Under the pieces are notes generated by a model. The model was not told the origin of the DNA. It saw nothing but the letters and a program-made list of their open reading frames with translations, and did no database searches. Below, in pieces: positions 6,147 through 30,025 of a DNA stretch of 64,000 nt (positions are counted from its first letter, which is position 1; every line of letters starts with the position of its first letter). Both the position numbers and the translations under genes were made by a program. This DNA comes from Actinomycetota bacterium (GTDB lineage: Bacteria; Actinomycetota; UBA4738). The DNA lies in NCBI GenBank assembly GCA_050692195.1, contig JBOGVA010000080.1:2292-66291 (forward strand), given 5' to 3'.

Positions 6147-6150
6147 GGGA

Positions 6151-9126: not shown

Positions 9127-9207
9127 TTTCTGCGAGCGAGCCTAGCAGGGGGGATCCAAGCAGGCAACCAGGACCGAGAGGGCTTGTCTATCGGACCGCC
9201 TCGTTGG

Positions 9208-9253
9208 GTGCGCCGGGAGGGATTCGAACCCCCGACCCGCTGCTTAGAAGGCA
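9208..9253 (-). repeat. Distal att-type direct repeat: a displaced copy of the 3' 46 nt of tRNA-Arg(TCT)
   Basis: Identical in all 46 positions to 29952-29997 when counted base by base. The adjacent sequence (9254 onward) cannot form the 5' half of a tRNA, because there is no GCGCCGG acceptor strand. Confidence 0.85.
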
Positions 9254-9565
9254 CGGAAGCCTGAACGGTGTGCTTTCCAGGGAAAACGCAGGTCAACCGT
9301 GAGCGAAATGGGCTGAGTTATCAGCTGAAATGTCACCCCTGGAAGGTGTCCCCTTTTAGACGACGATTCGCGCGATTGTCGCTCTCCGGCGAGCCCTCCA
9401 GTCGTGCGGAGCCTGTGAGACCATCGAGGGCACCGACGACACGGTTGCCAGGGGCCTCGCGAGACGTGCCGACAGCCACAAGTATCGGCCCTCGAGGCCA
9501 TACAGCCCGCTCCAGTAGCAAATTCAGGCATCGTCTTGCCAATGTTTTCAGGATTGGCCTAAACT

Positions 9566-10330
9566 TTGGACCGCATGCCCCACGCTGAGTCGCGAAAGCC
9601 GTTCAAGTTCCGTTCCGTGCAACGGCACAGAACGTCTTCGCTGGTGGCCAGCCAGGTGCTCAGTGAGATCGCTGCGGGAAGTTTGCCACCGGGCACCCGC
9701 CTTCCGCCGGAAAGGGAGCTAGCCATTCAAATGGGGGTCAGCCGCACCATTCTCAGGGAGGCCTTGTCCGGGCTCCAGCTTCTCGGGGTTATCAGACGTG
9801 TTGCTGGCGACGGTACCTACGTCCAGAGTTGGACAGAACCATTCTCCGCAAACCAGGGGCTTTCATTAGGAGAAGGGGCCCTGGGAATGGCAAGGCTCTA
9901 TCAAGCCCGAGAGGCCTTAGAGATCGGTGTCGTTGCCATCCTGTTAGAGAAAGATTCTGTCGACCTATCTGCCTGCTGGGAGTGCATCGCTGGCATGGGA
10001 GACGCTGTGAGGACAAGCGAAAGAGACCGCTATCTTGAACTGAATCTCAACTTTCACGTGAGGTTGGCGGAGGCGACCAGGAATCCGATCCTCGCCGAGC
10101 TGACTGCTTCGCTCGTTTCTCGTATGCATGACTTTGATGTGCTCCTGGAGGTGCTGCATACGAATCAATCGGCCGAGAGATCAGTCCAGAACCATGAAGG
10201 AATGCTTCTCCTGCTAGAAAGGAAGGATGCCGGCGTGATCCAGGCGGTCTCTCATCACTACCGGGATTACCCTTGGACCGCTTCTCTGAATTGGCCGACA
10301 GCTGTGGTGTCATCTGAGGAAGTCACCTGA
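9566..10330 (+). CDS. GntR-family transcriptional regulator (FadR/FCD subfamily)
   Basis: 254 aa with HTH ERELAIQMGVSRTILREALSGLQLLGVI and an all-helical C-terminal FCD-like domain. It is the first gene inside the island. The start could instead be the ATG at 9575. Confidence 0.85.
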   Translation: MDRMPHAESRKPFKFRSVQRHRTSSLVASQVLSEIAAGSLPPGTRLPPERELAIQMGVSRTILREALSGLQLLGVIRRVAGDGTYVQSWTEPFSANQGLSLGEGALGMARLYQAREALEIGVVAILLEKDSVDLSACWECIAGMGDAVRTSERDRYLELNLNFHVRLAEATRNPILAELTASLVSRMHDFDVLLEVLHTNQSAERSVQNHEGMLLLLERKDAGVIQAVSHHYRDYPWTASLNWPTAVVSSEEVT

Positions 10331-10337
10331 TACCGCA

Positions 10338-11528
10338 ATGGATCGACAGGGGCCGCTCACCAATCTGAGGGTCGTTGATGCAGGCACGACGCTGGCTGGA
10401 CCGATGGCGGGGACCCTTCTGGCAGACCTTGGGGCTGATGTAATCAAGATCGAGCACCCGAAGGGCGGCGATTCCTTGCGAAGCTGGGGGCCGTTTAAGC
10501 GAGAGGAATCACTGTGGTGGAAAGTCACGGCGCGTAATAAGAAGCTGATTACCTTGGACTTGTCTTGTGAAGAGGGACAAGAGCTTTTCCGTACTCTCAT
10601 TGGCAGGGTTGATGTGGTCATTGAGAACTTCCGGCCGGGGACTTTCGAACGTTGGTCTTTGGGGCCGGTGACCCTCTTTGCCCTCAATCCGTCTTTAGTT
10701 CTAGTGCGGATAAGCGGATTTGGTCAGGAAGGCCCGTATCGAAGCCAACCAGGCTACGGGACGATTGCTGAGGCATTGACTGGCATTCCGTACTTCACGG
10801 GCTTCGCCGACGCGGCGCCCACGTTCTCTGCCTTCCCCTTGGCGGACGCCGTCGCAGCGCTTTTTGCGGCGATCGGAGCCCTTGCAGCCGTCTCGAATCC
10901 GAGTGCTCGCGGGCAGGTTGTCGATGTTTCGCTGTTCGAGCCATTGTTTCGTCTTGTCGAGAGCCAAGTAATTGGGTATCAGCAACTCGGGATTGTAAAG
11001 GAGCGGGCAGGCAACAGGTTGGCTGAGGACGCCCCCCGCAACGCATACCAAACTCGCGATGGAGGATGGATCGCTATCTCGGCCAGCTCGGATCGGACGT
11101 TCCACCGTCTTTGTCGAGCCATTGGCCGATCAGATCTGATCGAGGACGAAAGGTTCTCCTCGAATAGGGCTCGCGTTAGAAACAATGACGAGCTCGACAA
11201 GATAATTGACGGCTGGATGCACGGCAGGTCCCGCGACGAGGCGATGGCTCGTCTGGAGGAGTTCGACGTCGTAGCGGGTCCCGTCTTGAACATTGGTGAG
11301 ATATTCGAGCATCCACTGTTTACGGCACGCGACGCAATCGTGTCAGCGTCCGACGAGTTGCTCGGTGTGCTTGCAATGCCGGGGGTCGTTCCGAGGTTCT
11401 CGAATACACCTGGCGCTGTCAGATTCCCAGGCGGCCGACTCGGTAGAGACAATCGCAACTTCTATTGCGACGAGCTTGGGATGAGTGAGGCGGAATTCCA
11501 GGAGCTTGCTGCTCGGGGAGTCATCTAG
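10338..11528 (+). CDS. Family III CoA-transferase (CaiB/BaiF type)
   Basis: 396 aa with the N-terminal signature LRVVDAGTTLAGPMAGTLLADLGADVIKIEHP. Confidence 0.85.
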   Translation: MDRQGPLTNLRVVDAGTTLAGPMAGTLLADLGADVIKIEHPKGGDSLRSWGPFKREESLWWKVTARNKKLITLDLSCEEGQELFRTLIGRVDVVIENFRPGTFERWSLGPVTLFALNPSLVLVRISGFGQEGPYRSQPGYGTIAEALTGIPYFTGFADAAPTFSAFPLADAVAALFAAIGALAAVSNPSARGQVVDVSLFEPLFRLVESQVIGYQQLGIVKERAGNRLAEDAPRNAYQTRDGGWIAISASSDRTFHRLCRAIGRSDLIEDERFSSNRARVRNNDELDKIIDGWMHGRSRDEAMARLEEFDVVAGPVLNIGEIFEHPLFTARDAIVSASDELLGVLAMPGVVPRFSNTPGAVRFPGGRLGRDNRNFYCDELGMSEAEFQELAARGVI

Positions 11529-11530
11529 TC

Positions 11531-12682
11531 GTGGGTGATCCAGTGATCGTCGCTTACGGGCGTAGCCCGTATGAGAGACGGAGCTCTAGGTCAACTGTTT
11601 GGCATCTTGGGCAGGCTGTTCTCGAGGCAACAGAGACGGCAGGTCTCTCGCCGCACGCCATTGACGGATTGGCTCTTACGTCCTTCACGCTTCGCCCCGA
11701 CAACGTAGTCACCTTCGCAGAATGTCTTGGGCTGGAGCTGCAATGGGCATGGGAGGGAAAGGCGGGGGGAGCTTCTGGGGTGTCCGGTCTCCTTGCAGCG
11801 GCGGATGCTATCAAGGGTGGCCGCGCATCCGTCGTCGTTTGTGTTGCCGGAGATGCGCTCACTGTAGGAGCGCACGACGAGATGATAGCGAGCTTCAGTT
11901 CCCCAATACGCGACTTCCTATCGCCGCTTGGGTTCGGCGGAGCCAATGGAATGTTTGCTTTGGTTCAGAGTCGGCACATGGCTCTATTCGGTACGAGACG
12001 TGATCAGCTTGGCCGTCTCGCCGTTGCCCAGCGCAGGAATGCCATGCCCAACCCGTGTGCCTTGTTCAGGGAGCCCTTAGAACTCGACGAATATTTGAAC
12101 GCCCGGCGGATAGTCGACCCCATCGGGCTCTTCGATTGCGTTCTGCCCTGTTCCGGGGCGGAGGCAGTCTTAGTCGTCGATAGAGAGCAGAACTCCTGGA
12201 TTACACGACCAATGATTGAGCTCCGATCCGGTTACGAGCTACATAATTTCCGCCCCGGCGATGTCGCTCCAGTCACGTACGGGTGGACCGCGTTTCAGAA
12301 GCGACTGTTCGCTGATGCGGGGCTCGAGCACGACGATATTGACTGCGTACAGCTCTACGATGACTATCCCATCATGGTCGGGATTCAGCTTGAAGACTTG
12401 GGATTCTGTGACAAGGGCGCTGCTGGTTCCTATCTCGAGGGCTTGGATATCTCCCCCTCAGGCAATCTCCCACTCAATACGGGTGGGGGACAGCTGTCTG
12501 TTGGTCAGAGCGGGGCAGGCGGAGGAATGATCGGTCTCGTCGAGGCAGTGCAGCAGCTACAGTGGGAAGCGGATGGCCGACAGGTGCCCAATGCGCGGAC
12601 TGCGTTGGTATCAGGGTTCGGGATGGTCAGTTATGGCCGAGGACTATCAACCGGTGCACTCATCCTGGAGAGAGGCTCATGA
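11531..12682 (+). CDS. Thiolase-fold protein (SCP-x/Ltp-like), apparently lacking the canonical catalytic Cys and His
   Basis: 383 aa with the overall thiolase pattern. The region that normally holds the nucleophilic Cys reads GGASGVSGLLAAADAIKGG. The C-terminal GHPxGATG region reads GQSGAGGG. The gene is translationally coupled (ATGA) to the DUF35 gene. Confidence 0.7.
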   Translation: MGDPVIVAYGRSPYERRSSRSTVWHLGQAVLEATETAGLSPHAIDGLALTSFTLRPDNVVTFAECLGLELQWAWEGKAGGASGVSGLLAAADAIKGGRASVVVCVAGDALTVGAHDEMIASFSSPIRDFLSPLGFGGANGMFALVQSRHMALFGTRRDQLGRLAVAQRRNAMPNPCALFREPLELDEYLNARRIVDPIGLFDCVLPCSGAEAVLVVDREQNSWITRPMIELRSGYELHNFRPGDVAPVTYGWTAFQKRLFADAGLEHDDIDCVQLYDDYPIMVGIQLEDLGFCDKGAAGSYLEGLDISPSGNLPLNTGGGQLSVGQSGAGGGMIGLVEAVQQLQWEADGRQVPNARTALVSGFGMVSYGRGLSTGALILERGS

Positions 12683-13092
12683 CGGAACTTCCTCCACAGA
12701 ACCTGACTGAGCCGGTCCTTCCATGGCGGGAGGATACGAGGGAGGGCTGGATTCAGCAGCGGTGTACCAAGTGCGGCCACGCGGTGTGGTTCCCCCGGGA
12801 TCGCTGTCCGGCGTGTTGGTCAGATGACCTCCATTGGGAGCCAGCAGAGGGGAGGGGTGAAGTCATCGCGAGTGCTCTAGTACACCGCCCTCACCACCCC
12901 TCCTTTAGGGTCCATACGCCCTTCACCATCCTCGTCGCGGCCTTGCCGAACGGCTCGCTGGTATGTGCGCTCGCAAGGGGAAGCGCTGACCCCATTGCTG
13001 TTGGCAGCACGGTACTTCTTACTCGTGGGGAAGGATTGCTTCCTGATTCGGTGGTTCCTGTAGCCGTAGCGGGGGAGCCGCGGAATGCTTAG
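12679..13092 (+). CDS. DUF35 zinc-ribbon/OB-fold protein (partner of thiolase-fold proteins)
   Basis: The ATG at 12679 overlaps the upstream stop. It has a CTKCGH...CPACWS zinc ribbon followed by an OB-fold-like segment. Confidence 0.8.
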   Translation: MTELPPQNLTEPVLPWREDTREGWIQQRCTKCGHAVWFPRDRCPACWSDDLHWEPAEGRGEVIASALVHRPHHPSFRVHTPFTILVAALPNGSLVCALARGSADPIAVGSTVLLTRGEGLLPDSVVPVAVAGEPRNA

Positions 13093-13360
13093 GAGTCGAT
13101 CGACTTTGATCGCGCCCGCAATCATGACCGGCGGCGTTTGGAAAGGAGGTAGCGGGAACGTCATCGGTAAGTCAGAAAGACGGAGACCATGCAGATCCGG
13201 CGGTGTTCCAAGCACTGACGAGTTAGTGAACTCTGGAAGACCTTGGTCGTCCCATGGACGTTCAGGCCGCTGGGCATGAGGTTAAAGTACCTTCAACACC
13301 GCGCTTGCATCCGAAGGTACCAGCAGAACGAATGAGTGGACAAGAGGAGGGAGGAGCAGG

Positions 13361-14254
13361 GTGAATCAGGGACGACATGTGAAGATTGGACTTGCGCAAC
13401 TGACGCGCAAACTGGGGGACAAGCACGAAAACGTTGCGCGCGGATCGGCCTTTGTTCGGGAAGCTGCAGAGAAGGGTGCAACGCTGGTCATTCTCCCCGA
13501 ACTCTTCAACACGGGGATGGTAGCAACGGATGTATACGACCAGGAACGCCTCGGGTGGGCAGAGACGACCGATGGAGAATCGATATCCGCCATGTGCGCT
13601 CTCGCTCAGGAGCTTTCAGTCGCGATCATCGCCCCCATATTCGAGTTTGAGCCCGAAGGAACTATGTGGTTCAACACTGCGGTCGTGATCGATGAAACCG
13701 GACAGGTTGTCGGGAAGTATCGCAAGCGTCACATCCCGATCATCCCTCGCCAGCTGGAGAAGGCATATTTCTCGCCAGGTGACATCTTCTATCGAGTCTT
13801 TGACGTTGCTGGCTGCAAACTGGGCGTCTTAATCTGCTACGACCGTCATTTTCCTGAGTCCTTCCGGCACCTGGCACTTCAGGGCGCGGAGGTGGTGGCT
13901 GTTGTTAGCAATACTCCGACGGAGTTCTCAGGGAAGAACTGGATTCCGGAAATGCACGTGAATGCAGTCGCAAATGGGTGCTTCATCGTTCAGGTGAATG
14001 CCTCCGGCAAGGAGGAGGATATCCCCTGGTTTGGTCGAAGCGCCGTGGTCTCTCCTCGGGGAGACGTGCTCTTGGAAATGGGGAGTGAACCGGGCGTAGA
14101 GGTCGTGGAGCTGCCTCTGGGCGAGATCGAGATCGTGCGCAGGCACTACGCGACTCTTCGAGACGTGCGAGCGGAAGACTTCGTCGGCTCAGTCCCGGAG
14201 CTGCCGCGTCATGCCGAGCAAGCGGCAACGCCGGGGAAGGCCTCTAGAGGCTGA
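13361..14254 (+). CDS. Carbon-nitrogen hydrolase family protein (N-carbamoyl-amino-acid amidohydrolase / beta-ureidopropionase-like)
   Basis: 297 aa, GTG start with a strong upstream SD (gaggagggaggag). The E-K-C triad contexts are ILPELF, YRKRHIP and LICYDRHFPE. Confidence 0.85.
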   Translation: MNQGRHVKIGLAQLTRKLGDKHENVARGSAFVREAAEKGATLVILPELFNTGMVATDVYDQERLGWAETTDGESISAMCALAQELSVAIIAPIFEFEPEGTMWFNTAVVIDETGQVVGKYRKRHIPIIPRQLEKAYFSPGDIFYRVFDVAGCKLGVLICYDRHFPESFRHLALQGAEVVAVVSNTPTEFSGKNWIPEMHVNAVANGCFIVQVNASGKEEDIPWFGRSAVVSPRGDVLLEMGSEPGVEVVELPLGEIEIVRRHYATLRDVRAEDFVGSVPELPRHAEQAATPGKASRG

Positions 14255-14379
14255 GCGCGGGCGGGGACTGCTCAACGTCGTGAAGTAGCTGCCCGCGTCC
14301 TCGCCCGGTCCGATGGGGCGGCCTCACGTCGCGATACGCGATCGACGTGGGTCCGTAGACGACTGGAGGAGGGAGCCCC

Positions 14380-15777
14380 CTGAAGCTTTGGATCAAGGAC
14401 GGCCTCCTTGTGAGCTCTGGCGGCCTACGTCGGGGGGACTTGCTTTGCACAAACGGAACGATCGAGGCCGTGCTGGAGTCCGGGGACAGGGCCATCGTGG
14501 ACGCTCAAATCGATGCTCGAGGATGCCTGATTTTTCCCGGCTTTATCGATCCTCATGTCCATTCTCGGGATCCTGGTCTTACCGAGAAGGAGGACATAGA
14601 ACATGCTACTGCTGGAGCTGCAGCGGGAGGGATTACGACCATCTTCGACATGCCGAACACAATTCCCCCGCCGCGCAATGCCTCCATCTTGGGAGGGCGT
14701 GTGGATGAGCATCTCGGGCGGGCGTTCACTGATTTTGGATTGTGGGGTCTGGCGATACCGGGGGAGAATACATCCGATATCGCCCAGCTGTTCAGAGCAG
14801 GAGCGATCGGGGTCAAGCTATTCTGGCCCTTCGCCATCACCAAGAGCGACAATCGAATCGTACCGCTTCCCGACAAGTGGAATGTCGAGGACTTCATTCT
14901 TCCCGCTGATAACGGTACGGTATTCGAGCTGTTTCAGACGGTGGCGGAGATCGGCGGATTGTTAGCCGCTCATTGCGAAGATCCTGCCATCCTGAATGCG
15001 TCAAGAGCTGACAGTCTGGCCCGTCCCGCTAGCTTCGACACATTTCTACGAAGCCGTCCAGCCGTTGCTGAAAGCGTGGCCGTGGCAACAGGGATCGAAT
15101 TGGCCCGAGCAACCGGATGCCGCTTCCACGCAGTGCATCTCAGTACGGGGCGCGCAAGCGAGCTAATCAAGCAAGGCCAGAACAGTGGTGCGCAAGTGTC
15201 CGGAGAGACGTGTCCACAATACCTGCTGCTTTCCGATGCTGATTACGGCAGCATCGGGGCGGCGATGAAAGTGGTGCCTCCCATCAGAGGATCGGAAGAG
15301 CGAGAGGGTTTGTGGGCGGGAGTTAGAAGCGGGACCATTACGTCACTCGGGTCGGATCATGCGCCGCATACAGTGATGGAAAAGGCTCAAGAGGAATTTG
15401 AGCAACAGCCTCCGGGCGGGATCGGGGTCGAGACGCTTGGCCCCCTGATGATCAATGAGGCTCTGCAAGGACGACTGCCTCTTGAAAGCCTGGCATGGCT
15501 CCTCTCCGAGGGTACCGCACGACTCTATCGACTCTTCCCCCGAAAGGGTTCTCTTCTCCCAGGCGGCGACGCAGATTTCACGATTGTGGACCCAAGTGAA
15601 TCCTTCGAGATAAGGAACGAGCGCCTCCATGCGAAGAATAAGCTCAGCGCATGGCACGGGCGACGCCTCCTGGGCAGGATCAGGTGGACGGTGCTAAGAG
15701 GGGAGACGATCGCAGTCGATGGTGAGCCGGTCGGTTCGCCCAGGGGCCAATTTATCTCTCCCGAGGGTCGAGCTTAG
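14380..15777 (+). CDS. Cyclic amidohydrolase (hydantoinase / dihydropyrimidinase / allantoinase / DHOase superfamily)
   Basis: The track ORF starts at GTG 14410. I extend it to the in-frame CTG at 14380, which lies 6 nt downstream of the SD ggaggaggga. The added KLWIKDGLLV matches the usual N-terminal strand of this family. Metal-site motifs are present: DPHVHSRDPG, GVKLFW, AAHCED, HAVHLST and GSDHAPH. Confidence 0.8.
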   Translation: MKLWIKDGLLVSSGGLRRGDLLCTNGTIEAVLESGDRAIVDAQIDARGCLIFPGFIDPHVHSRDPGLTEKEDIEHATAGAAAGGITTIFDMPNTIPPPRNASILGGRVDEHLGRAFTDFGLWGLAIPGENTSDIAQLFRAGAIGVKLFWPFAITKSDNRIVPLPDKWNVEDFILPADNGTVFELFQTVAEIGGLLAAHCEDPAILNASRADSLARPASFDTFLRSRPAVAESVAVATGIELARATGCRFHAVHLSTGRASELIKQGQNSGAQVSGETCPQYLLLSDADYGSIGAAMKVVPPIRGSEEREGLWAGVRSGTITSLGSDHAPHTVMEKAQEEFEQQPPGGIGVETLGPLMINEALQGRLPLESLAWLLSEGTARLYRLFPRKGSLLPGGDADFTIVDPSESFEIRNERLHAKNKLSAWHGRRLLGRIRWTVLRGETIAVDGEPVGSPRGQFISPEGRA

Positions 15778-15998
15778 CCGACAGCTGTGCCGTACTCGGC
15801 CTGGCGTGTGGCTGCCGTTCCTAGTGGCAGTGGGAGAAGTGCGGTCCGCGGATAGCAGAGACCGGAGTCTGTTCCTCGTCCTTGAGTACTGAGGCCGGGT
15901 TTGGACGATTAGTAGAAGGGCCTCAAGCCACAACGCGCAATGAGCAGGACGCGCCCCCTGAGGTCGGCCAATCTGCCCTGACGGGTTCTGAATCCTTC

Positions 15999-16943
15999 CT
16001 AGGCCTTGGGCAAATCCCCTGCCTCGTCCGCGCCTCCGGCGCGGACCGTGGCACCACCGAGCACGATGAGACCCCCACCCAGTATCTGAAAGGCAGTCAG
16101 GGATTGGTTCAACCAGACGTATCCAAATAGCGCGGCGACGAAAGCTTCGACCATTGCGATGATTCCGGCTTGCCTTGTATCGACTTGGCGGAGGCCCCAT
16201 AGCAGCAAGATGAAGGGGATCACAGTAGCGAACGTCCCCAAATATAGGATCCCGGGTATTGCATCCCAGCGGAGAATGCTGGTTGGCCAGCCACGACTCA
16301 CTTGCCATGCGGAAAGTAGGAAAGCGGCCACGAAGGAGGCGGCAAGGAAGCCACGCGCAGGATCGATGACTGCGGCTACCTGTTTCCCCGACATCCACAT
16401 GATTGCCAACCCAAGAGCGCCCCCGAGAGCGGCGAGGACCCCAACGGGATCTAGCCGTTGTGAGGCTCCTCCAAGCACACTTTGGAGTTCTGAAAGCAGG
16501 AGCACGCCAGCAAATGCAACTAGGACACCGACGGTTACAGGGAGGTTTGGCCGGATCCCCTGAACGAGCCATTTCCAAAGGACAAGCATTGCAGGAGCTG
16601 TGTACAAAATCGTGGCGGCGATTCCGATGGGCAAGCTCTGTAGAGCGCGATAATAGGCTGCATTAGACACGGCGATTGAAATTCCGAAAACGACGACCCA
16701 AACTGACGCACCTCTTCTCGTGCTGGGACCATCCGGCACCGTCCACCCCTTTATGGTGAGGATGACACCCAGGATCAGGGCCGCCATCCAATACCGGACT
16801 TGGACGAGTTCGACGGTGTCAATTCCACGATCAAGGAGAATGCGAGCGACGCCCTGCCCAACGCCCAACAAGGTACTGGCGACGAATATCGCGGCGAATC
16901 CTGTCCCCCTTCTGCGATTTGCCTTCTCAAATCGCTGAATCAT
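15999..16943 (-). CDS. DMT-superfamily (EamA-type) transporter
   Basis: 314 aa, about 10 TM segments with a duplicated EamA-like architecture. Confidence 0.8.
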   Translation of the reverse strand: MIQRFEKANRRRGTGFAAIFVASTLLGVGQGVARILLDRGIDTVELVQVRYWMAALILGVILTIKGWTVPDGPSTRRGASVWVVVFGISIAVSNAAYYRALQSLPIGIAATILYTAPAMLVLWKWLVQGIRPNLPVTVGVLVAFAGVLLLSELQSVLGGASQRLDPVGVLAALGGALGLAIMWMSGKQVAAVIDPARGFLAASFVAAFLLSAWQVSRGWPTSILRWDAIPGILYLGTFATVIPFILLLWGLRQVDTRQAGIIAMVEAFVAALFGYVWLNQSLTAFQILGGGLIVLGGATVRAGGADEAGDLPKA

Positions 16944-16980
16944 CTTGTACCGTGCTTGGCCTTGTCCCTCTGCCCATGGT

Positions 16981-17227
16981 CGGAGGGCGATCTTGCCTCA
17001 AGACGGGAGAATCCGGTCGGAGGGGAACCCTGCGCGTAGAGCCGGCCGGCTTCCTCGACCACGATGTCGGCGAACTGGGCACCGGGACGAGCGCGCGCCG
17101 TCCGCCCGCGAAGCCGCGCTTCGCGCGCCTCACAGACAAACCGCTGGAGAGGCCGGGGCGGCGCGACGGGCGCATCCTGTGTCTTCCCGTTGTGCTTATT
17201 CTGCAGGCTCCCGCACCGTGGGCAGCG
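16981..17227 (-). pseudogene. Degenerate N-terminal fragment of an IS-type transposase (zinc ribbon + HTH, InsA/IS1-like layout)
   Basis: Track ORF 16940..17317 contains RCPRCGSLQNKHNGKT...QRFVCEAR (the second CxxC is broken) followed by an HTH-like LYAQGSPP...SRL. No DDE domain follows. This patch is locally more GC-rich than the rest of the island. Confidence 0.3.
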
Positions 17228-17456
17228 GACCCGTCCTTGGTTGCCATCCCCAGACCTCCCTATCCCCCCGTTACCGGTAGCTGCCACGAGAAAGGCTCTG
17301 CGACCTGAGACTTTCACCCTTTGTCAGATCCAATCGATCGGATGCTGTCCAAGATTATCCTGGTGCCGTTGGGCAAGGGGAGGCGAACAAGGCACGTCCG
17401 GACAACCACCTTCGCGCCGCGCAGCAGCACAGAAATCGTAAGGAGACCTGATCGCG

Positions 17457-18224: not shown

Positions 18225-18244
18225 CCTAGACCCCCCCTCGCCCT

Positions 18245-18257
18245 CGCTATTGGATCC
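18245..18257. promoter_or_regulatory. Candidate operator motif CGCTATTGGATCC (copy 1)
   Basis: It lies in the divergent spacer between the signal-less SBP homolog and the Rieske oxygenase. It matches 24045-24057 at 12 of 13 positions. Confidence 0.25.
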
Positions 18258-18313
18258 TCGCTCCTTGGGATTTTCATGACCTGTTTCCTGGTCTGATTAG
18301 GCAAGTTGGCAGT

Positions 18314-19402: not shown

Positions 19403-19484
19403 GGCCCCAAATACACGGATGAGGCGTTCAAGGCTGCCGTTTCGTTTTCCAGTTGTTGAGACGCGGAGGAGGTTGGGGGTGGAG

Positions 19485-20447: not shown

Positions 20448-20524
20448 TCCGCGGAATGCGTCGAGCCGCCGACGATCCGCACCGACAGCCTGGAGGACTT
20501 ATACGTGCCATGTAGAGGATCGAC

Positions 20525-21903: not shown

Positions 21904-21909
21904 GCCCCC

Positions 21910-23166: not shown

Positions 23167-23257
23167 AACGTTTGTCAGGGCTGCCCGGATGACTGCCGGA
23201 GCTATCACCTAGAGGAGACCCTGCGGCAAGGAACCTTTACTCGCCGGAGGAGGGGTT

Positions 23258-24010
23258 GTGAGGACTAGCGGACTTGAAGGAAGGGTCGCCATCGTCACTG
23301 GCGCAGCGCAAGGTGTAGGCAAGTGCATCGCTGACTTCCTCGCTCGAGATGGGGTGCGTGTGATAGCCGCTGACATCCAAGGCGAGAAGGTTCGGGAGGT
23401 AGCCCGCGAACTCTCTGCGTCGGGGCAGGAAGTGGAATCGGTTGTTGTCGACATAGCAGATCCCCTCTCGGCGGAGAGGATGGTCGCTGCCACGGTGGAG
23501 CGATTCGGCCACGTCGATATACTCGTTAACAACGCTGGCATCGACGCGCCTCCCGGATTCGCGACAGAACTCACGAAGGAGGATTGGCAACAGGTAGTTG
23601 ACGTGGATCTGTCGGGAGCTTGGTGGTGTACCAAGGCCGTCCTCCCTCACATGCTAGCGTCGCGTTGGGGTCGGATCATATTCATCAGTTCGATGAGTTG
23701 GCGAATCGGATCACGCGACATCTCAGTTGCCTACAATACCGCGAAGGCGGGATTGATTGGTTTGACCATTGGACTTTCTGTGCAGCTGGAGGAGTACGGC
23801 ATTCTGGTAAATGCGATCACTCCCGGGCCCACCGGCACCGGACGCGGACTCGTAACTTCACCGCAGAATGTCGCCACTCGGCGAGCCTCCCCGCTTGGGA
23901 TTGGCGGGCCGGAGCCGATCGCCCACGCTTGTCTCTATCTGGTAGGAGAGAGTGGGGACTGGATCAGCGGCAGCGTGTTGAATGTCAGTGGCGGGTGGCT
24001 GCGTGGGTAG
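23258..24010 (+). CDS. SDR-family oxidoreductase
   Basis: 250 aa with TGAAQGVG, NNAG and the YNTAKAG catalytic motif. GTG start after the SD ggaggagggg. Confidence 0.85.
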   Translation: MRTSGLEGRVAIVTGAAQGVGKCIADFLARDGVRVIAADIQGEKVREVARELSASGQEVESVVVDIADPLSAERMVAATVERFGHVDILVNNAGIDAPPGFATELTKEDWQQVVDVDLSGAWWCTKAVLPHMLASRWGRIIFISSMSWRIGSRDISVAYNTAKAGLIGLTIGLSVQLEEYGILVNAITPGPTGTGRGLVTSPQNVATRRASPLGIGGPEPIAHACLYLVGESGDWISGSVLNVSGGWLRG

Positions 24011-24044
24011 GAGGCCAGGCAGACCGAAGAATTGCAAGGCGACA

Positions 24045-24057
24045 CGCTATTGGGTCC
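24045..24057. promoter_or_regulatory. Candidate operator motif CGCTATTGGGTCC (copy 2)
   Basis: It lies in the spacer upstream of the amidohydrolase gene. A weaker relative, CGCTATGTCC, is at 26535-26544, just upstream of the ABC ATPase gene. Confidence 0.25.
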
Positions 24058-24149
24058 GCTGTCGAGGTATGGGCGCTGCGCTGCTCAGGTCCGGCGCGAG
24101 AAAGCCCGCCCCGGACTGGACCAGATCAGAGTGAACCGAGCGGAGTGAT

Positions 24150-25658
24150 ATGTCGACGGGGAGCCTAGAAGCGAACGCCATCGTCGTTCGGAACGGCCAG
24201 TTGCTCGACGTGGATACGTGGACGACAAGCCCTCAAGATATCCTTATTCGCGGAGATCGGTTCGAGGCTATTGAGCGCTCCATCGAGCCGCCGCCGGAGG
24301 CCCTCATCTTGGAAGCTGCCGGGGGCCTTCTGATCCCAGGATTCATCAACGGACATACTCACTCGCAAAACAACCTGACAAAGGGATCAGGAGATAGATG
24401 GACGCTTGAGATGGCCCTTATCTTTGGCCGGGCCCTCAACAGTCGTAGAACAACGGACGATCATCACGTCTCGGCTCTGCTTGGAGCGGTCGAGATGATC
24501 AGGAGCGGAATCACGTCAGTGTACGACTTATTCATCGAGTCTCCGCAACCTACCCCGGATGGAATCGGAGCAGTCGTGGCCGCATACGACACAGCCGGCC
24601 TGAGAGCCATAGTGGCGCCAGCTGTGGCGGACATCGATGTTCTTTCCCTTCTTCAGCAAATTGATTCTCCTGTAGCCGCAGGGATCGCGGTCGACAGTAA
24701 GGGATCGCCTTCGGCGGAGGAGATGCTCGACATCCTTCGAAACGCGGGGGAGAGGAAGCAGGGACCAAATCAACGGGTTCGGCTTGCCGTTAGTCCCACG
24801 ATCCCGCTGTACTGTTCTGACGAGCTCATGGAGGGCTTGAGAGATCTCGCATCTACGTGGGATTCCTCAATTCACTCCCACCTTGCGGAGACAAAATTCC
24901 AGGCCGTCAGCTCAGTCCTTGCGACCGGACTTTCCAACGTGGAGAGGCTAGCTACGCTCGGGGTACTGAGTGATCGTTTTATTGGCGCTCACGGAGTTTG
25001 GCTCAGGCGAAAGGAAGTCGGCATGCTTGCTGCGCAGGGCTCAGTGATCGTCCATAACCCCACAAGTAACTTCAAACTTGGATCTGGCGTTGCCAACATC
25101 AGACAGCTTCGATCAATGGGTGTGCGAGTGGCGTTAGGAACCGATGGGTGCCTCAGTTCAGACAATCAAAACATGTTTGCGGCGCTCAAGAGTGCGACGT
25201 TCGCATCGCGCCTTCGGTCGTCGTCACCAGACGCCTGGCTGGGCTCGCGTGACGCCCTCGAATTGGCCTGGCGAGGCGGGGCTCTAGCGATGGGTCTGCC
25301 TGACTCTCTGGGGAAAATTGCTCCAGGGTACCTGGCAGATTTGGTTATCTTAGATGCTGATTCGGTTCATCTCTTGCCTGTGAACGATGTCTGCAATCAG
25401 CTCGTGTACTGTGAAACGGGAGAAGCTGTCGATACAGTGATCGTGGGCGGGCGCGTGCTCATGAAGAATAAGGTCCTTGTGTCTCTTGATGAGAGAGCAG
25501 TCAAGGCCGAGGCTCGAGAGGCAAGAGAGCGGCATCATGAGCGAATCGGTCCTGCATTGGAGGAGGCCCGGGCAAGGGCTCAGTTAGTCCAAAGGGCTTG
25601 CTCTGAAATCACGAGTTCAGAGACGGATGATGACTTCACGTCTCTCCGGGGCGCGTAG
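24150..25658 (+). CDS. Amidohydrolase-superfamily protein (TRZ/ATZ / aminohydrolase-deaminase-like)
   Basis: 502 aa with PGFINGHTHS (HxH metal site), HLAET and GTDG motifs. The C-terminal ~60 aa form a charged helical extension. Confidence 0.8.
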   Translation: MSTGSLEANAIVVRNGQLLDVDTWTTSPQDILIRGDRFEAIERSIEPPPEALILEAAGGLLIPGFINGHTHSQNNLTKGSGDRWTLEMALIFGRALNSRRTTDDHHVSALLGAVEMIRSGITSVYDLFIESPQPTPDGIGAVVAAYDTAGLRAIVAPAVADIDVLSLLQQIDSPVAAGIAVDSKGSPSAEEMLDILRNAGERKQGPNQRVRLAVSPTIPLYCSDELMEGLRDLASTWDSSIHSHLAETKFQAVSSVLATGLSNVERLATLGVLSDRFIGAHGVWLRRKEVGMLAAQGSVIVHNPTSNFKLGSGVANIRQLRSMGVRVALGTDGCLSSDNQNMFAALKSATFASRLRSSSPDAWLGSRDALELAWRGGALAMGLPDSLGKIAPGYLADLVILDADSVHLLPVNDVCNQLVYCETGEAVDTVIVGGRVLMKNKVLVSLDERAVKAEAREARERHHERIGPALEEARARAQLVQRACSEITSSETDDDFTSLRGA

Positions 25659-25716
25659 CATGACAGAGCGCGGGCTTCCTGGGGTGCGTCTAAGCCGTAG
25701 TAGAGCTGGTAGAAGG

Positions 25717-26463
25717 ATGCGATTCGAGGGCAAGGTCGTGCTGGTTACGGGGGCCTCCCAGGGCATAGGTGAAGCCACCGCGGTCGCATTTGGCACCGAG
25801 GGGGCTGCCGTTGTAGTGAATCACTTCGGCACCAAGCCTCGGGCTACGGCAGTGGGGAAAAAGATTTCAGGCCGCGGCGGAGCAGCGCTCGTCCTTGAGG
25901 CAGATGTGAGCGACCCACAGGCGGTAGGAGCCATGATCAAGGAGACAATGTCGACTTTTGGCCGCGTCGATATTCTGGTCAACAACGCTGGCATCGTCTC
26001 GCGGGCGCCAATCTCTGAGCTGGCCTATGACGAATGGGAACGTGTGATTAAGGTCAATCTTGGCGGAGTATTCAACCTGTGCAAGGAAGTCGTGCCTATC
26101 ATGCTTTCGCAGCGGTACGGCAAGATCATAAACATCTCATCTGAGCTCGCGATTGTGGGCGAAGAAAGACTCGTTCACTATTGCGCGGCGAAGGCCGGCA
26201 TTCTCGGTCTCTCTAAAGCGCTTGCGAGAGAGGTCGGGCCCAGCGGCATCCAAGTCAATGTAGTCGCACCGGGGAAGACACGGACACCCATGTTGCTGGC
26301 AACTCCCTCCAACTGGGCTCCTGAGGCGCTGGAGGCTATTCCTCTCCGAAGGCTGGCGGAACCGGAAGAGATTGCGGCGACAGTCTGCTTCCTCGCTTCA
26401 CCGGACGGGGACTACTATGCAGGTGCGGTTCTGAGTCCGAACGGTGGAATCGTGATGTGGTAA
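25717..26463 (+). CDS. SDR-family oxidoreductase
   Basis: Track ORF 25627..26463. I prefer the ATG at 25717 (MRFEGKVVLVTGASQGIG). NNAG and YCAAKAG motifs are present. Confidence 0.85.
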   Translation: MRFEGKVVLVTGASQGIGEATAVAFGTEGAAVVVNHFGTKPRATAVGKKISGRGGAALVLEADVSDPQAVGAMIKETMSTFGRVDILVNNAGIVSRAPISELAYDEWERVIKVNLGGVFNLCKEVVPIMLSQRYGKIINISSELAIVGEERLVHYCAAKAGILGLSKALAREVGPSGIQVNVVAPGKTRTPMLLATPSNWAPEALEAIPLRRLAEPEEIAATVCFLASPDGDYYAGAVLSPNGGIVMW

Positions 26464-26560
26464 AGAGTGGGGGCTGAGGATGGTTCTTCCGCTAGGCGAA
26501 GGACATCACAAGGAGGCACAGGGATCTGATTTGTCGCTATGTCCTGAGCAGGTGAGGTAA

Positions 26561-27406
26561 ATGGATGCCCTTTCATCGGATCCGCGTGCTACAGGTCCAC
26601 AGGGCGAGGGCGGAGCGATCTCGGAAAGCGCGGAGTCAGGTGTCGTAAGTTTTCGCAAGGTCTCCAAGCACTTTCAGGACATAGTTGCCCTACAAGATGT
26701 CGACCTGGACGTCGCTTCCGGTGAGAGGCTCGCAGTTATCGGACGGAGCGGCTCCGGGAAGAGCACGCTCCTGCGCGTTCTGATAGGGCTCGAACGACCC
26801 ACCAGCGGCTCAGTCGAGGTAGATGGCGAGCCACTGTGGCACATGAAGCGCAATGGACAACTTGTTCCCGCGAACGACCGGCACCTTCGTGCGGTTCGGC
26901 GGAAACTCGGGATGGTCTTTCAAGCATACAATCTCTTTCCGCACATGACGGTCTTAGGCAATCTCGTGGAGGGGCCGATCCACGTGCTCGGCATGTCCAA
27001 GGAGGAGGCGGTTGATCTCGCTCGCAGGATGCTTGAAATGGTCGGCCTTACACGGAGGGAGGACGCTTATCCGAGCCAGCTCTCCGGCGGGCAGCAACAA
27101 CGGGTGGCCATTGCCAGGGCGTTGGCCATGGATCCCGAGATCCTTCTTTTCGATGAGATCACCTCAGCCCTCGATCCAGAGCTCATAGCGGAGGTCTTGG
27201 GCGTTCTTCGGAAACTAGCTCATGAAAGCAGCAAGACCATGCTCATCGTCACGCACGAAATGCGCTTTGCTCGTGACGTGGCCGACCGCATTGTGTTCTT
27301 TGACGAGGGCCGAATTGTAGAAGTCGGTTCACCGCAACAGCTGTTCGTTGAGCCGACGAATCCTCGCACGCGCGCCTTCCTGAAGGATATTCTGGAGGCT
27401 CGCTAG
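26561..27406 (+). CDS. Amino acid ABC transporter ATP-binding protein
   Basis: 281 aa with Walker A GRSGSGKST, signature LSGGQQQRV and Walker B ILLFDE. Confidence 0.9.
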   Translation: MDALSSDPRATGPQGEGGAISESAESGVVSFRKVSKHFQDIVALQDVDLDVASGERLAVIGRSGSGKSTLLRVLIGLERPTSGSVEVDGEPLWHMKRNGQLVPANDRHLRAVRRKLGMVFQAYNLFPHMTVLGNLVEGPIHVLGMSKEEAVDLARRMLEMVGLTRREDAYPSQLSGGQQQRVAIARALAMDPEILLFDEITSALDPELIAEVLGVLRKLAHESSKTMLIVTHEMRFARDVADRIVFFDEGRIVEVGSPQQLFVEPTNPRTRAFLKDILEAR

Positions 27407-27844
27407 TGGTAACGTTCAGGTAAGGATCTGGAACACTTTCCGTGGGACCTTTGGGCCTACCTTGAATCCTTGACCCACACGGACGAGGTAAGGCGGTCCT
27501 TGGTTTGCGGACGGCATGGTTCGCTTCCGGACTCGGCAGCCGGACATCCCCAGTCCTTCGAGCACGGTCTAGGGCATCCCCGATGATGCGGTCGATCTCC
27601 GCGAACCTCGCCATGAAGCTGCTGAACGGGCGGTGTGCGTCAACGTCGTTCGCATCCAACCGAGCGTGGTCTTGGCCGGTTCGCTAGCCCCCCATCTGCC
27701 TCGGCCAATGGCGGCTTAGTCGAACGATGCGGCAAGACCCAATGGTCGAGCGGAATGCCTTGCTTGCGCCCTTTGCTCTAACCCACGCGCTCGACGGCTA
27801 GCCGCGGAACCCGTCTAGGCATCCCTCGAAGACAGCTTGCCGGA

Positions 27845-28075
27845 ATGCAGGATCCAACATTCTGGGAGGTCCCGCTGCGTATGGTCGACCCGAAGCAGGC
27901 GCCCTTTCGAATCCATAAGGACGAACACGCTATCTTCGAGTGGGAGCGACCCCTTCCGGACTTAACTCGATCCAATGTTGGCTCTGTCTTGATCGAGTAC
28001 AGCGTCGACCGGGATGGTGAGCGCCAGATTCTCAAGAGAACTCTGGAGTTTCCTAAGATGGGCGACTCGGAATAG
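27845..28075 (+). CDS. Hypothetical small protein (76 aa)
   Basis: ORF from the track with coding-like codon usage, 29 nt upstream of the GNAT gene on the same strand. I recognise no motif in it. Confidence 0.35.
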   Translation: MQDPTFWEVPLRMVDPKQAPFRIHKDEHAIFEWERPLPDLTRSNVGSVLIEYSVDRDGERQILKRTLEFPKMGDSE

Positions 28076-28104
28076 CGCCTACGTCCTCTCACGGAGTCGG
28101 AACG

Positions 28105-28572
28105 ATGCTCGTAAGAATGCGCGCCGCGACGCGGGCAGACAGAGACTTCCTTACCAAGATGGCTGCACTATTTGGTCATGGCGCGGAGACGGGCTCAGTG
28201 CGAGATTGGCCACGGGCGCATTGGGATTTTGGTCTGATAGCTGAGAATGAGGATGGGCAACCCATCGGCGCGGCATGGTGGCGCCAATTCGGCGGAGCTC
28301 CGATTGGAGGCGAGGCTTCAACTTGGCGAGAGGTCTTCCTTGCAGTCGATTCGGAATACCAGGGGCAAGGATTGGGGGGCAACCTACTGGACGAGTTGAT
28401 TGCTCGGGCTAGAGCCATGCCGAACACTCCCCGGTTGATAGGAAGAATCGTCGAGGGCGATGAAAGAGCGAGACGCATACAGCAAATGCTGGTACGACGT
28501 GATTTTGTGGAGGACCGCACATGGGCGAGGTTTCCGGGTGGAAGCGTGCTCTGGTCACTCAATGTTCAATAG
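28105..28572 (+). CDS. GNAT-family N-acetyltransferase
   Basis: 155 aa with an acetyl-CoA-binding-type segment EYQGQGLGGNLLDELIARA. Confidence 0.75.
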   Translation: MLVRMRAATRADRDFLTKMAALFGHGAETGSVRDWPRAHWDFGLIAENEDGQPIGAAWWRQFGGAPIGGEASTWREVFLAVDSEYQGQGLGGNLLDELIARARAMPNTPRLIGRIVEGDERARRIQQMLVRRDFVEDRTWARFPGGSVLWSLNVQ

Positions 28573-28584
28573 CGTGAGGAAGGC

Positions 28585-29385
28585 ATGACCGACGGCTGGC
28601 GATACATACCGGATCCCAGCCGATGGCCAGCTAGGGTAGCGGCCTACGTGACCATGGCCCGTGCGCGGCTGGCCTCTCCCGGGGCGCTTCTGCACTTCGA
28701 CGAGTTGTTCCAACAAGTGCTTGTTGAAGACGGTCTGGGCCCTGATGCGCAAAGCTTATGGAGGGAGCTTGGCGACGAGCGACTCCGAGTTGCAGAGGCG
28801 GAGTATCTTGTCATCGAGGCATTCAGTCGCTTGGTTGCGGACGGGGAAGCTTTGGCGATTGGAGGGAGGGGCCCCGTATATGTAGGAGATTTGTGGGAGG
28901 CGCTGGGATTCCAGGAGCCGCGGAGCAATTGGGAGAACACTCCTAGCGTACTGAGATCAACAGTACGCGCTCAGGAACGCGAACCTGCTGAATGGGCGGA
29001 GCTGGGGACTTGGCCAGGCGTCGACGCGCTTGTTAGGGAGGCGCGCGTTGCGTATGGACACGGGCTATACGTCGCGGCCGCTGCTACTGCCCGAGTGGCG
29101 GCGGAGCAGGCTGTCGAAACTGCGCTCGATACCCAAGGCCTTTCCACAGATGGCGTTGCCGCCGTTCGTGAGGAGCGCTTGTTTGGCTCGCTGAAAGCTT
29201 CATCCTTCGCGACTGGGCCACTCGACTACAGCGCGACCCGATCCAACTTGAGTGCGGTACGAAATCAGGGGAACGTTGCCGCTCACGACGGCGTTGTGAA
29301 TCACGCGAGTCTGCAGGAAGCACTCACTCAGCTGTTGCCGCAGGCGTTTGTGAGCCTCTATCGCGCAATGACACGCCAGACCTAG
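28585..29385 (+). CDS. Hypothetical protein with a C-terminal DUF4145-like domain
   Basis: 266 aa. The C-terminal half (LVREARVAYGHGLYVAAAATARVAAEQAVE ... SAVRNQGNVAAHDG) matches the DUF4145 pattern as I remember it (helical, with an RNxGNxAAH motif). It starts 12 nt after the GNAT stop. Confidence 0.55.
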   Translation: MTDGWRYIPDPSRWPARVAAYVTMARARLASPGALLHFDELFQQVLVEDGLGPDAQSLWRELGDERLRVAEAEYLVIEAFSRLVADGEALAIGGRGPVYVGDLWEALGFQEPRSNWENTPSVLRSTVRAQEREPAEWAELGTWPGVDALVREARVAYGHGLYVAAAATARVAAEQAVETALDTQGLSTDGVAAVREERLFGSLKASSFATGPLDYSATRSNLSAVRNQGNVAAHDGVVNHASLQEALTQLLPQAFVSLYRAMTRQT

Positions 29386-29805
29386 CATCGCCAACCGGAG
29401 GCTGGGCGCTCCAGCGCCGATATCGATTACTACCGTCCAGTCATCATCGCGGGGTCGCTCGACGTCGCCTCGGGACCTGGCTACGACCTCGATAGTCCTC
29501 CTCCACTGTTCCAGTGCGGCAGCTCTCGCCCTGATCCCCGCCGCGTCCGCGTCCTCCCACAAGGATCTCGCGGAATCGAGGGGATCTATGAGTTCGCGTC
29601 TAAGGTTGACGCCGCGCTGATCCTCCGCTTCCGCTTCCTCTTGCCCTATCGCTATCGGAACGTGGCCGTTAGCCACATGCCGGCGGAGACTCCTCTCCGC
29701 CATCCCGAATTGCGGCGCTATGGGGCGGAATGGAGCCCCCCGAATCACCGATCGCTCGATTCGGTGGCGTTCAGGATGTGAGCAGGCCACGCAGCGACGA
29801 GGCAT
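29200..29805 (-). CDS. Phage-type DNA-binding protein (zinc-ribbon/HTH, small-terminase-like or regulator-like)
   Basis: I use the ATG at 29803-29805, preceded by the SD gagggag. MPRRCVACSHPERHRIERSVIRGAPFRPIAPQFGMAERSLRRHVANGHV resembles a family common in actinophages and prophages. The 3' end runs into the convergent DUF4145 gene, so the real stop and extent are uncertain. Confidence 0.45.
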   Translation of the reverse strand: MPRRCVACSHPERHRIERSVIRGAPFRPIAPQFGMAERSLRRHVANGHVPIAIGQEEAEAEDQRGVNLRRELIDPLDSARSLWEDADAAGIRARAAALEQWRRTIEVVARSRGDVERPRDDDWTVVIDIGAGAPSLRLAMLGLACHCAIEAHKRLRQQLSECFLQTRVIHNAVVSGNVPLISYRTQVGSGRAVVEWPSREG

Positions 29806-29951
29806 ATGACCATCTCCCTCACGAAATAGACCGGCGGGCTGTCCGGCCTTGCCGATCGTCCCTACAGCGGATAAGTACACAGCTTTCCGGGGTTTCTTCG
29901 GAATATCTGTGCAGCTCGCTTCGGGCCCTTTCAGCCGATAACCGCCACTTC

Positions 29952-29997
29952 GTGCGCCGGGAGGGATTCGAACCCCCGACCCGCTGCTTAGAAGGCA
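29952..29997 (-). repeat. tRNA-proximal att-type direct repeat (inside the tRNA-Arg gene)
   Basis: Identical in all 46 positions to 9208-9253. It covers the tRNA from the 3' end to the anticodon loop. Confidence 0.85.
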
Positions 29998-30025
29998 GCC
30001 GCTCTATCCCCTGAGCTACCGGCGC
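29953..30025 (-). tRNA. tRNA-Arg (anticodon TCT)
   Basis: The reverse complement folds as a 73-nt cloverleaf. Acceptor stem GCGCCGG/CCGGCGC, D arm GCTC-AGGGGATA-GAGC. Anticodon arm GCTGC-CTTCTAA-GCAGC, T arm GGGGG-TTCGAAT-CCCTC. CCA is not encoded. Confidence 0.9.

Follow-up and report, generated by a model that had tools for sequence, protein, structure and literature searches.

How did a block of 20.7 kb come to lie between a tRNA-Arg(TCT) gene and znuA when no enzyme that could have placed it there is recognisable beside it? This question is raised by a stretch of 64,000 nucleotides (nt) from an Actinomycetota bacterium (assembly GCA_050692195.1, contig JBOGVA010000080.1), which we call the window and in which all positions are counted from its first letter. 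A first-pass annotation, made from the letters alone, had described the block as an island integrated into the tRNA gene and bounded by perfect repeats. Following up this description, we find that the block is probably a horizontally acquired island, integrated at tRNA-Arg, which is now a non-autonomous, integrase-less remnant.

Two perfect copies of the tRNA-Arg 3' part bound a block of foreign composition

The borders of the island are formed by a tRNA gene and by a fragment of it, the two attachment (att) cores:

29952-30025, minus strand: tRNA-Arg(TCT) (ARAGORN); its 3' 46 nt (29952-29997) are the tRNA-proximal att core, an attL-type junction
9208-9253, minus strand: displaced 3' fragment of tRNA-Arg, an exact 46-nt direct repeat; the distal att core, an attR-type junction

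As the first-pass annotation had claimed, the two copies of the 46-mer GTGCGCCGGGAGGGATTCGAACCCCCGACCCGCTGCTTAGAAGGCA, at 9208-9253 and 29952-29997, are 100% identical and point the same way. The identity ends at both sides. On the tRNA strand the repeat spans nt 29 to the 3' end plus one base; it opens with the final three bases of the anticodon stem's 5' arm and runs from there through the anticodon loop onward. When a 35-nt core was searched with three mismatches allowed, the window gave two matches, namely the two copies, versus none in 100 shuffles. The 5' half is missing beside the distal copy, where ARAGORN detects no tRNA and Rfam none at E<=1, so that the distal 46-mer is not part of a second functional tRNA, which the annotation had named as fatal to its own reading. 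The base after the 46-mer on the znuA side agrees with the native tRNA flank of a related contig, L164, so that the identity there extends to 47 nt. The tRNA-Arg gene itself is 100% identical over 75 nt to tRNA-Arg in the relatives L164, L171 and L172.

The island had also been described as visibly less GC-rich than its surroundings, and three profiles agree on this point. GC content is 0.56-0.61 across 9.2-29.9 kb versus 0.67-0.74 in the flanks, and GC at third codon positions is 0.56-0.68 in 19 island genes versus 0.85-0.91 in 11 flank genes. Tetranucleotide usage correlates at 0.90-0.94 between the flanks and at 0.88 between the two halves of the island, versus 0.63-0.75 between island and flank. 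The shift in composition falls at the repeats. Since the interior is uniform and differs from the flanks, the whole of the 20.7 kb looks like one foreign unit.

The genes next to the two borders belong to the host:

8239-9126, minus strand: znuA, first gene of znuABC-fur (Pfam PF01297, 4.9e-74; syntenic in relatives)
7493-8242, minus strand: ZnuC (Pfam)
29988-31433, minus strand: MFS_3 transporter (Pfam; identical product of 481 amino acids (aa) on record)

On the tRNA-Arg side MFS_3 is accompanied by tRNA-Gly and tRNA-Pro. Synteny with annotated relatives identifies the flanking 9 kb and 12 kb as core genes, and reading the region at 42-64 kb by eye adds FolC, Ndk, FabF/H/D, cytochrome oxidase and bc genes, MreB/D, PBP2 and RodA. 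The earlier view that the island sits among ordinary core genes, with the znuA promoter on one side and the MFS/tRNA cluster on the other, is thereby upheld. The MFS_3 open reading frame (ORF), which encodes 481 aa, enters the tRNA-Arg gene on the same strand by 38 nt (29988-30025).

The two flanks are neighbours in related genomes

The useful related contigs were reached via homologues of both island-flanking proteins and then via the metagenomic contigs that encode them. A metagenome-contig scan with ZnuA yielded relatives of at most 53% only, without synteny, and the exact CoA-transferase and ZnuA sequences of the window gave no record (start-codon differences). In the contigs L164-167, L168-170, L176 and that of P0126, whose flanks are 79-85% identical in nucleotides to the window, the gene order is tRNA-Pro, tRNA-Gly, MFS_3, (PNPOx), tRNA-Arg(TCT), then 1.2-3.3 kb of intervening DNA, then ZnuA-ZnuC-ZnuB-Fur; each locus has one copy of the 46-mer and no second tRNA fragment. 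The intervening DNA always includes a LuxR-type response regulator besides small genes, and a LuxR-type regulator lies directly before znuA in L177 and L178 as well. Because the flanks are neighbours in six related lineages with a single 46-mer, the 20.7-kb segment is an insertion.

The first-pass annotation had proposed to look for an empty site in which tRNA-Arg directly abuts the znuA promoter. The relatives agree with this in that their flanks are adjacent, 1.2-3.3 kb apart, and hold a single tRNA copy, but the tRNA does not abut znuA directly. Since similarity to the window is regained only at 9147-9169, they are not strictly an empty site of the window lineage. The closest species representative, L001 (MFS 86% identical in amino acids), is syntenic, but its contig stops inside the MFS gene and carries no junction information.

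What follows directly downstream of tRNA-Arg differs from one member of the clade to another, and L164, L168, L176 and L171/L172 all lack a second tRNA fragment. A small ORF and the LuxR regulator occupy this place in L164 (8718-9980) and L168 (11483-12672), and AhpC, a 393-aa orphan and SnoaL are additional in L176 (1213-4456). The corresponding DNA of L171/L172 (L171 11923-18289) carries genes for BNR_2, GAF-SpoIIE and F420H2-quinone-reductase-like proteins, and znuA does not occur within 6 kb.

No recombinase is recognisable in the island

Pfam searches detected neither PF00589, PF00239 or PF07508 nor any other recombinase family in 22 long ORFs. A six-frame Pfam scan with stops masked (E<=1) covered three unassigned stretches, 27380-29960, 16880-17480 and 9230-9600. 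Its hits were GNAT, DUF4145 (weak) and a zinc ribbon at chance level, with no recombinase among them, and a six-frame PHROG scan of 27380-29960 returned GNAT only, likewise no recombinase. The statement that the island lacks a tyrosine or serine recombinase thus withstood both the ORF searches and the scans of these stretches.

The same annotation had noted an insertion sequence (IS)-like zinc-ribbon/helix-turn-helix (HTH) fragment at 17.0-17.2 kb, and this is unsupported: the six-frame scan gave the chance-level zinc ribbon alone, the ORF in question (16940-17317) matched no Pfam or PHROG family, and a tblastn search of 72,556 plasmids gave nothing for it. An IS or composite transposon, which should have a transposase and terminal inverted repeats with a short target duplication, was rejected as the carrier of the block, with no transposase family in the scans and with a 46-nt direct repeat that is the tRNA itself. 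PADLOC detected no defence family. Searching viral contigs for the exact 35-mer led to the tRNA array of a jumbo phage only, and to no attP. The contig concerned, L174 (IMGVR_UViG_3300015606_001334, 359,550 bp), is a low-GC (~0.43) viral contig with an array of 22 tRNAs at 3081-11521, whose tRNA-Arg(TCT) shares an exact 35-nt 3' stretch with the high-GC actinobacterial tRNA of the window.

A phage-type gene and probable decay next to the tRNA

The 2.5 kb that adjoin the tRNA are of a different kind from the rest of the island:

27407-28104, unstranded: gene-free stretch of ~0.7 kb with short ORFs only and no family (Pfam, PHROG, PADLOC)
28105-28572, plus strand: GNAT N-acetyltransferase (Pfam PF00583, 1.5e-9; phrog_1249)
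28585-29385, plus strand: hypothetical protein of 266 aa (sub-threshold DUF4145 match, Pfam E=0.006; singleton cluster; PGAP hypothetical protein)
29200-29805, minus strand: tRNA-adjacent ORF of 201 aa counted from MPRRC, with an N-terminal CCHH zinc motif and an HTH

The gene-free stretch is probably decayed sequence. The CCHH/HTH ORF would encode 226 aa if the GTG at 29880 is its start; it converges with the 266-aa orphan and overlaps it by 185 nt (29200-29385), and one or both of these frames have probably been extended by decay. A full HMMER search of 1.84 billion representatives found 1477 representative homologues of the CCHH/HTH protein, typically of ~160 aa and aligned over residues 1-118. 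The window protein retains the invariant C5, C8, H10, R42, H43 and H48; its C-terminal part is atypical, and approximately residues 120-160 of the family are poorly matched in it.

Homologues of this ORF lie directly upstream of, and overlap, the large terminase gene in Meiothermus phage MMP7 and Thermus phage Riverbug. The slot directly upstream of the large terminase gene is the usual position of the small terminase gene. The position of the gene in these two phages supports a phage-type DNA-binding, small-terminase-like protein, and together with the size of the ~160-aa family it bears out the earlier mention of a phage-type HTH gene beside the tRNA. The window protein matches no Pfam, PHROG or PADLOC family; most members of its family likewise have no Pfam or PHROG family, and a few match generic HTH models. 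When the family profile was compared with PDB sequences, designed helical proteins alone came up, which is uninformative, and the single-sequence AlphaFold2 models of this ORF and of the 266-aa ORF reached a predicted local distance difference test score of 37-38 (37 for the latter) and were unusable. The CCHH/HTH ORF had no match in a word-index homology search or in the plasmid collection, and scans of viral contigs with it and with the 266-aa ORF gave no match. A prophage or a satellite resembling phage-inducible chromosomal islands, either of which should carry integrase, repressor, replication and packaging or structural genes, was considered and rejected, since PHROGs finds no phage gene beyond the small-terminase-like ORF. 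No conjugation relics were found in the island, whose only backbone trace is this phage-type gene.

The same scar and arm lie beside different cargo in the closest relative

The closest relative of the window is L163, which is 91.9% identical in nucleotides to window positions 6211-9322 and has no tRNA on its 8.6-kb contig. It carries the identical 46-nt partial tRNA ~92 nt upstream of znuA, and one short piece of the island adjoins it:

9254-9322, unstranded: island-side arm beside the distal core, ~69 nt, the only island sequence common to L163

This arm aligns with L163 5548-5480 at 79.7% over 69 nt (blastn), and homology ends beyond it. The remainder of L163 (1-5480) is unrelated to the window cargo: two tandem SulP/STAS/cNMP-binding transporter genes with host-like GC (~0.70) lie upstream, preceded at 2-340 by a gene segment (GC 0.60) for the C-terminal part of a restriction nuclease of the Mrr type, and the contig ends before the tRNA side is reached. 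Since L163 is an independent assembly from another sample and has the same junction, the distal junction is biological and not an artefact of assembly.

The three adjoining segments of this junction have diverged to different degrees between the window and L163:

host-side intergenic DNA, 66 nt: 89% identity
tRNA scar, 46 nt: 100% identity
island-side arm, 69 nt: 80% identity

At 89% identity the chance of finding no difference in 46 nt is ~0.005 by our arithmetic, and the scar was therefore kept intact, renewed by conversion from the tRNA, or created separately in both genomes by two recent hits of elements sharing the arm. The greater divergence of the arm compared with the host flank mildly favours separate recent hits by related elements. 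The first-pass annotation had taken the undiverged repeats as a sign of recent integration. The repeats are indeed perfect, but L163 has an equally undiverged scar beside different cargo, so that a perfect repeat alone does not date the integration.

Inspection of the two island ends revealed a motif, CAGCNGATAA, with three exact copies in the window (9318-9327, 29865-29874 and 29932-29941) versus 0.14 expected, all of them at most 90 nt from an att core, and with one copy in 177 other loci. In their local context the copies read:

9317-9330, minus strand: copy 1, CAGCNGATAA(C), candidate arm-type site, inverted relative to copies 2 and 3
29865-29875, plus strand: copy 2, CAGCGGATAAG, 77-87 nt from the tRNA-proximal core
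29929-29942, plus strand: copy 3, TTTCAGCCGATAAC, 10-23 nt from the tRNA-proximal core

Positions 9317-9330 and 29929-29942 form a 14-nt inverted match with one mismatch, a length reached in 1 of 200 shuffles when the 200 nt inside each end were compared, and a direct 11-mer, GCTTTCC(A/G)GGG, is common to both ends (9272-9282 and 29882-29892). L163 keeps the motif only in part (CACTCGATAA). The motif copies and the L163 arm suggest conserved att arms, and the copies are a lead to possible arm-type sites of a heterobivalent tyrosine integrase, for which we regard them as candidates only.

A second footprint of opposite polarity at the same anticodon loop

In several relatives a gene of the PNPOx_N family (~0.5 kb) lies between MFS and tRNA-Arg (L173 4207-4448, L164 8129-8717, L171 11365-11922, L176 661-1212). 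In L173 an intact 5' half of tRNA-Arg, 35 nt long and broken off within the anticodon loop (…GCTGCCTTC, with CGGAA beyond the break), stands before the gene; L164 retains only a decayed trace of the 5' half (GCGCGGTA) and L171 none. L173 therefore presents a second footprint at the same loop with opposite polarity. Its 5'-type scar (nt 1-35) and the 3'-type scar of the window (nt 29 to the end) overlap by the 7 nt TGCCTTC (nt 29-35), which, to judge from the two sequences, is plausibly the crossover segment. MFS_3 orthologues of 481 aa are known from relatives without the PNPOx insert (P0123 and P0124).

How the island may have arisen

Repeats, foreign composition and the adjacency of the flanks in relatives together agree with the earlier proposal of site-specific integration into the 3' part of a tRNA gene. 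Because no integrase is seen in the 64-kb window, the mechanism is read from the footprint. A regenerated target gene with a displaced fragment is made by tyrosine integrases, the only recombinase family known to target tRNA genes (tDNAs) (PMC4383910). With an identity block of 46 nt that begins in the anticodon stem, the att geometry is that of the common anticodon-centred class, which tyrosine integrases use. We propose that segment 9254-29951 is an acquired catabolic and transport island from a lower-GC donor, which would have entered by conservative site-specific recombination at an att site in the anticodon loop of tRNA-Arg(TCT). The element would have arrived with its own copy of the tRNA from nt 29 to the 3' end; after crossover the functional tRNA would be completed by this copy (29952-29997), and the 3' half that had been there before would be displaced by 20.7 kb to 9208-9253, beside znuA. 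The tRNA-proximal 2.5 kb, with the CCHH/HTH gene, the GNAT gene, the orphan ORF and the gene-free 0.7 kb, may be residual backbone of the element. Its integration module would have gone by deletion while the att sites were retained, leaving a remnant that resembles a cis-mobilizable element (CIME). We favour deletion of the integrase gene because of the gene-free 0.7 kb, the aberrant C-terminus of the small-terminase-like ORF and its convergent overlap with the neighbouring frame.

Several points weigh against this history. Loss of the integrase gene needs at least one deletion that ended just outside the putative arm, with the repeats still perfect and the composition unameliorated. An integrase was seen nowhere in the 64-kb window, whose flanks were assessed only through synteny and by eye, and no strictly empty site of the same lineage, no excised circle and no intact relative of the island was found. 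The small-terminase role comes from gene position in two phages, the protein having neither a Pfam or PHROG family nor a usable structure, and the motif CAGCNGATAA was defined post hoc, after the data had been viewed. Finally, the scar in L163 makes the history of the site longer or more complex than one recent event.

The L163 scar might go back to a single integration in the common ancestor of L163 and the window, with scar and arm inherited, the interior replaced later in one or both lineages, and the 46-mer kept by gene conversion or another constraint such as a role upstream of znuA. One event is more parsimonious than two; moreover, the two closest genomes alone have in common the scar, a 38-nt host junction and the lack of a LuxR gene upstream of znuA, and the more distant relatives all have the regulator and no scar. 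However, foreign composition that is uniform up to the arm is hard to square with a long residence, the arm has diverged further (80%) than the host intergenic DNA (89%; p of about 0.01 on 69 nt by our arithmetic), and a swap of the whole interior with both att cores left perfect needs extra assumptions. On the whole we consider this account unlikely.

The island could instead be a functional integrase-less cassette and no dead remnant, its att cores and ~70-nt arms being conserved and a tyrosine integrase encoded elsewhere in the genome, or a helper element, serving to integrate, excise or exchange it; the tRNA-Arg site would then be a slot in which blocks of cargo are swapped. Under this explanation the identical scar and homologous 69-nt arm of L163, followed by unrelated SulP/STAS and Mrr-like cargo, find a ready place, as do a scar at 100% between non-coding DNA at 89% (host side) and 80% (island side), an arm more diverged than the host flank, as expected of separate related elements, and motif copies at both ends, perfect repeats and unameliorated composition; the L173 footprint at the same anticodon loop, with its 5'-half polarity, can be added. 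Against it, no integrase was identified in the window or the related loci, the L163 contig stops before the tRNA side, neither a circular junction nor an empty site was seen, L163 keeps only part of the motif, and two independent recent integrations or tRNA gene conversion also yield perfect scars. On balance we find it quite unlikely that the cassette is served in trans. A broader form of this idea, in which the anticodon loop of tRNA-Arg(TCT) is a reusable slot, the integrase lies elsewhere, and cargo blocks that keep the core and a ~70-nt arm are exchanged, strikes us as fainter again; candidate occupants of such a slot would be the 20.7-kb island, the SulP/Mrr block of L163 and the 0.5-kb PNPOx insert of L173 with its 5'-half scar. 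If scar and arm were truly a working att site used in trans, this would be natural cassette exchange at an Actinomycetota tRNA gene, and the point worth following is the conserved scar and arm beside different cargo in two lineages together with the opposite-polarity scar of L173.

It is very improbable that the junctions are an assembly artefact in which a circular or foreign molecule of 59% GC sharing the 46-mer was joined into the chromosome contig at the tRNA. The source is a contig of 66,432 bp in a metagenome-assembled genome, no second sample contains the island, and the source run, SRR27067773, has a k=31 Logan assembly that breaks inside the 46-mer: L175 (SRR27067773_102860, 1727 bp) ends 8 nt past the MFS stop codon. 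Such a break arises because the repeat is longer than k=31, and it is uninformative on alternative junctions. On the other side, L163, from another sample, has the homologous junction of host flank, 46-mer and arm, with the fragment devoid of its 5' half in both genomes, and the larger k values typical of metagenome assemblers exceed a 46-nt overlap. That the CCHH/HTH protein or the 266-aa orphan is an unrecognised recombinase, performing or directing recombination, is highly unlikely: the CCHH/HTH gene does fill the tRNA-adjacent spot usual for integrases and neither ORF has an assigned function, but the family is of ~160 aa without a catalytic-domain signature and lies upstream of the large terminase gene in phages, not at att sites, and the 266-aa ORF is a singleton without homologues at 90% and with uninformative structure models.

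The cargo is a metabolic and transport cluster

More than 85% of the probable integrase-less remnant is taken up by a coherent cluster of metabolic and transport genes that includes a GntR regulator and lies in two parts:

9566-16943, unstranded: cargo part 1, whole block (Pfam; NCBIfam family-level matches only)
9566-10330: GntR/FCD regulator (Pfam)
10338-11528: family III CoA-transferase (Pfam)
11531-12682: thiolase-like protein (Pfam)
12562-13092: DUF35/ChsH2-like protein, partner of the thiolase-like protein (Pfam)
13361-14254: carbon-nitrogen hydrolase, N-carbamoyl-amidase-like (Pfam)
14410-15777: cyclic amidohydrolase, allantoinase/hydantoinase-like (Pfam)
15999-16943, minus strand: EamA exporter (Pfam)
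17457-27406, unstranded: cargo part 2, whole block (Pfam; NCBIfam)
17457-18224, minus strand: SBP_bac_3, family-3 solute-binding protein (Pfam)
18314-19402: Rieske/VanA-type oxygenase (Pfam)
19365-20447: SBP_bac_3, second copy (Pfam)
20525-21903: two ABC permeases (Pfam)
21910-23166: alanine-racemase family protein (Pfam; PGAP name alanine racemase)
23258-24010: first short-chain dehydrogenase/reductase (SDR) (Pfam)
24150-25658: TRZ/ATZ-type amidohydrolase (Pfam; PGAP name amidohydrolase)
25627-26463: second SDR (Pfam)
26561-27406: ABC ATPase (Pfam; PGAP: EhuA-type, from the ectoine/hydroxyectoine-type ABC system)

None of the cargo proteins reached an NCBIfam equivalog cut-off, and we therefore state their function at the family level. 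The cargo proteins that were looked up are all singletons at 90% identity among 15 billion proteins, and the island DNA has no match in the plasmid collection. From its gene families, the cargo can safely be described as a putative regulated uptake-and-degradation cluster for an amino-acid-like or N-heterocyclic substrate; the combination of amidohydrolase, carbon-nitrogen hydrolase, racemase and ABC set recalls hydantoin or N-carbamoyl-amino-acid utilisation. An uncultured high-GC actinobacterium would thus have gained a complete package of regulator, ABC transporter and amidohydrolase/oxygenase genes from a lower-GC donor. The two SDR genes, paralogues in one cluster, share a 46-nt stretch that is 85% identical (23504-23549 and 25957-26002).

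Comparison with known mobile elements

The Islander catalogue of tDNA islands (Hudson, Lau and Williams 2015, PMC4383910) offers the closest frame for the window island. Of its 3919 islands, 2083 have an anticodon-centred attP, according to sublocation classes that come from Williams 2002 as cited there, and 3760 islands have 3' fragments versus 159 with 5' fragments. Like these islands, that of the window has an intact tRNA at one border, a displaced 3' fragment in the same orientation at the opposite border, foreign composition and accessory cargo; its identity block starts at the anticodon stem-loop, as in the anticodon-centred class, and the segment is absent from relatives in which the flanks are contiguous. 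Unlike them, it has no integrase gene and would be rejected by Islander's own filter, and it has no phage structural or conjugation set that could explain transfer from cell to cell. Integrase-dependent finders such as Islander thus miss islands of this type.

A CIME is a derivative of an integrative and conjugative element (ICE) or an integrative and mobilizable element (IME) that has kept its att sites and lost its integration module, as set out in a 2017 review (PMC5704250), where CIMEs are defined in Firmicutes as ICE/IME derivatives. The window island resembles a CIME in its two 46-nt att junctions, intact at the sequence level, in its position at a tRNA 3' end, and in that no recombination or transfer genes were found; from these junctions, excision or movement with an incoming element of the same specificity might be possible in principle. 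It differs in that the single trace of its backbone is phage-like and that it has no relics of a relaxase or a coupling protein. With cryptic or defective prophage remnants at tRNA genes it shares an att-adjacent DNA-binding gene of a phage family and a gene-free, decayed stretch; unlike them, it has no other detectable phage gene and is for the most part a metabolic and transport cluster. We conclude that the island is ordinary in kind and belongs to a well-known type, that of the decayed, integrase-less and CIME-like tRNA island.

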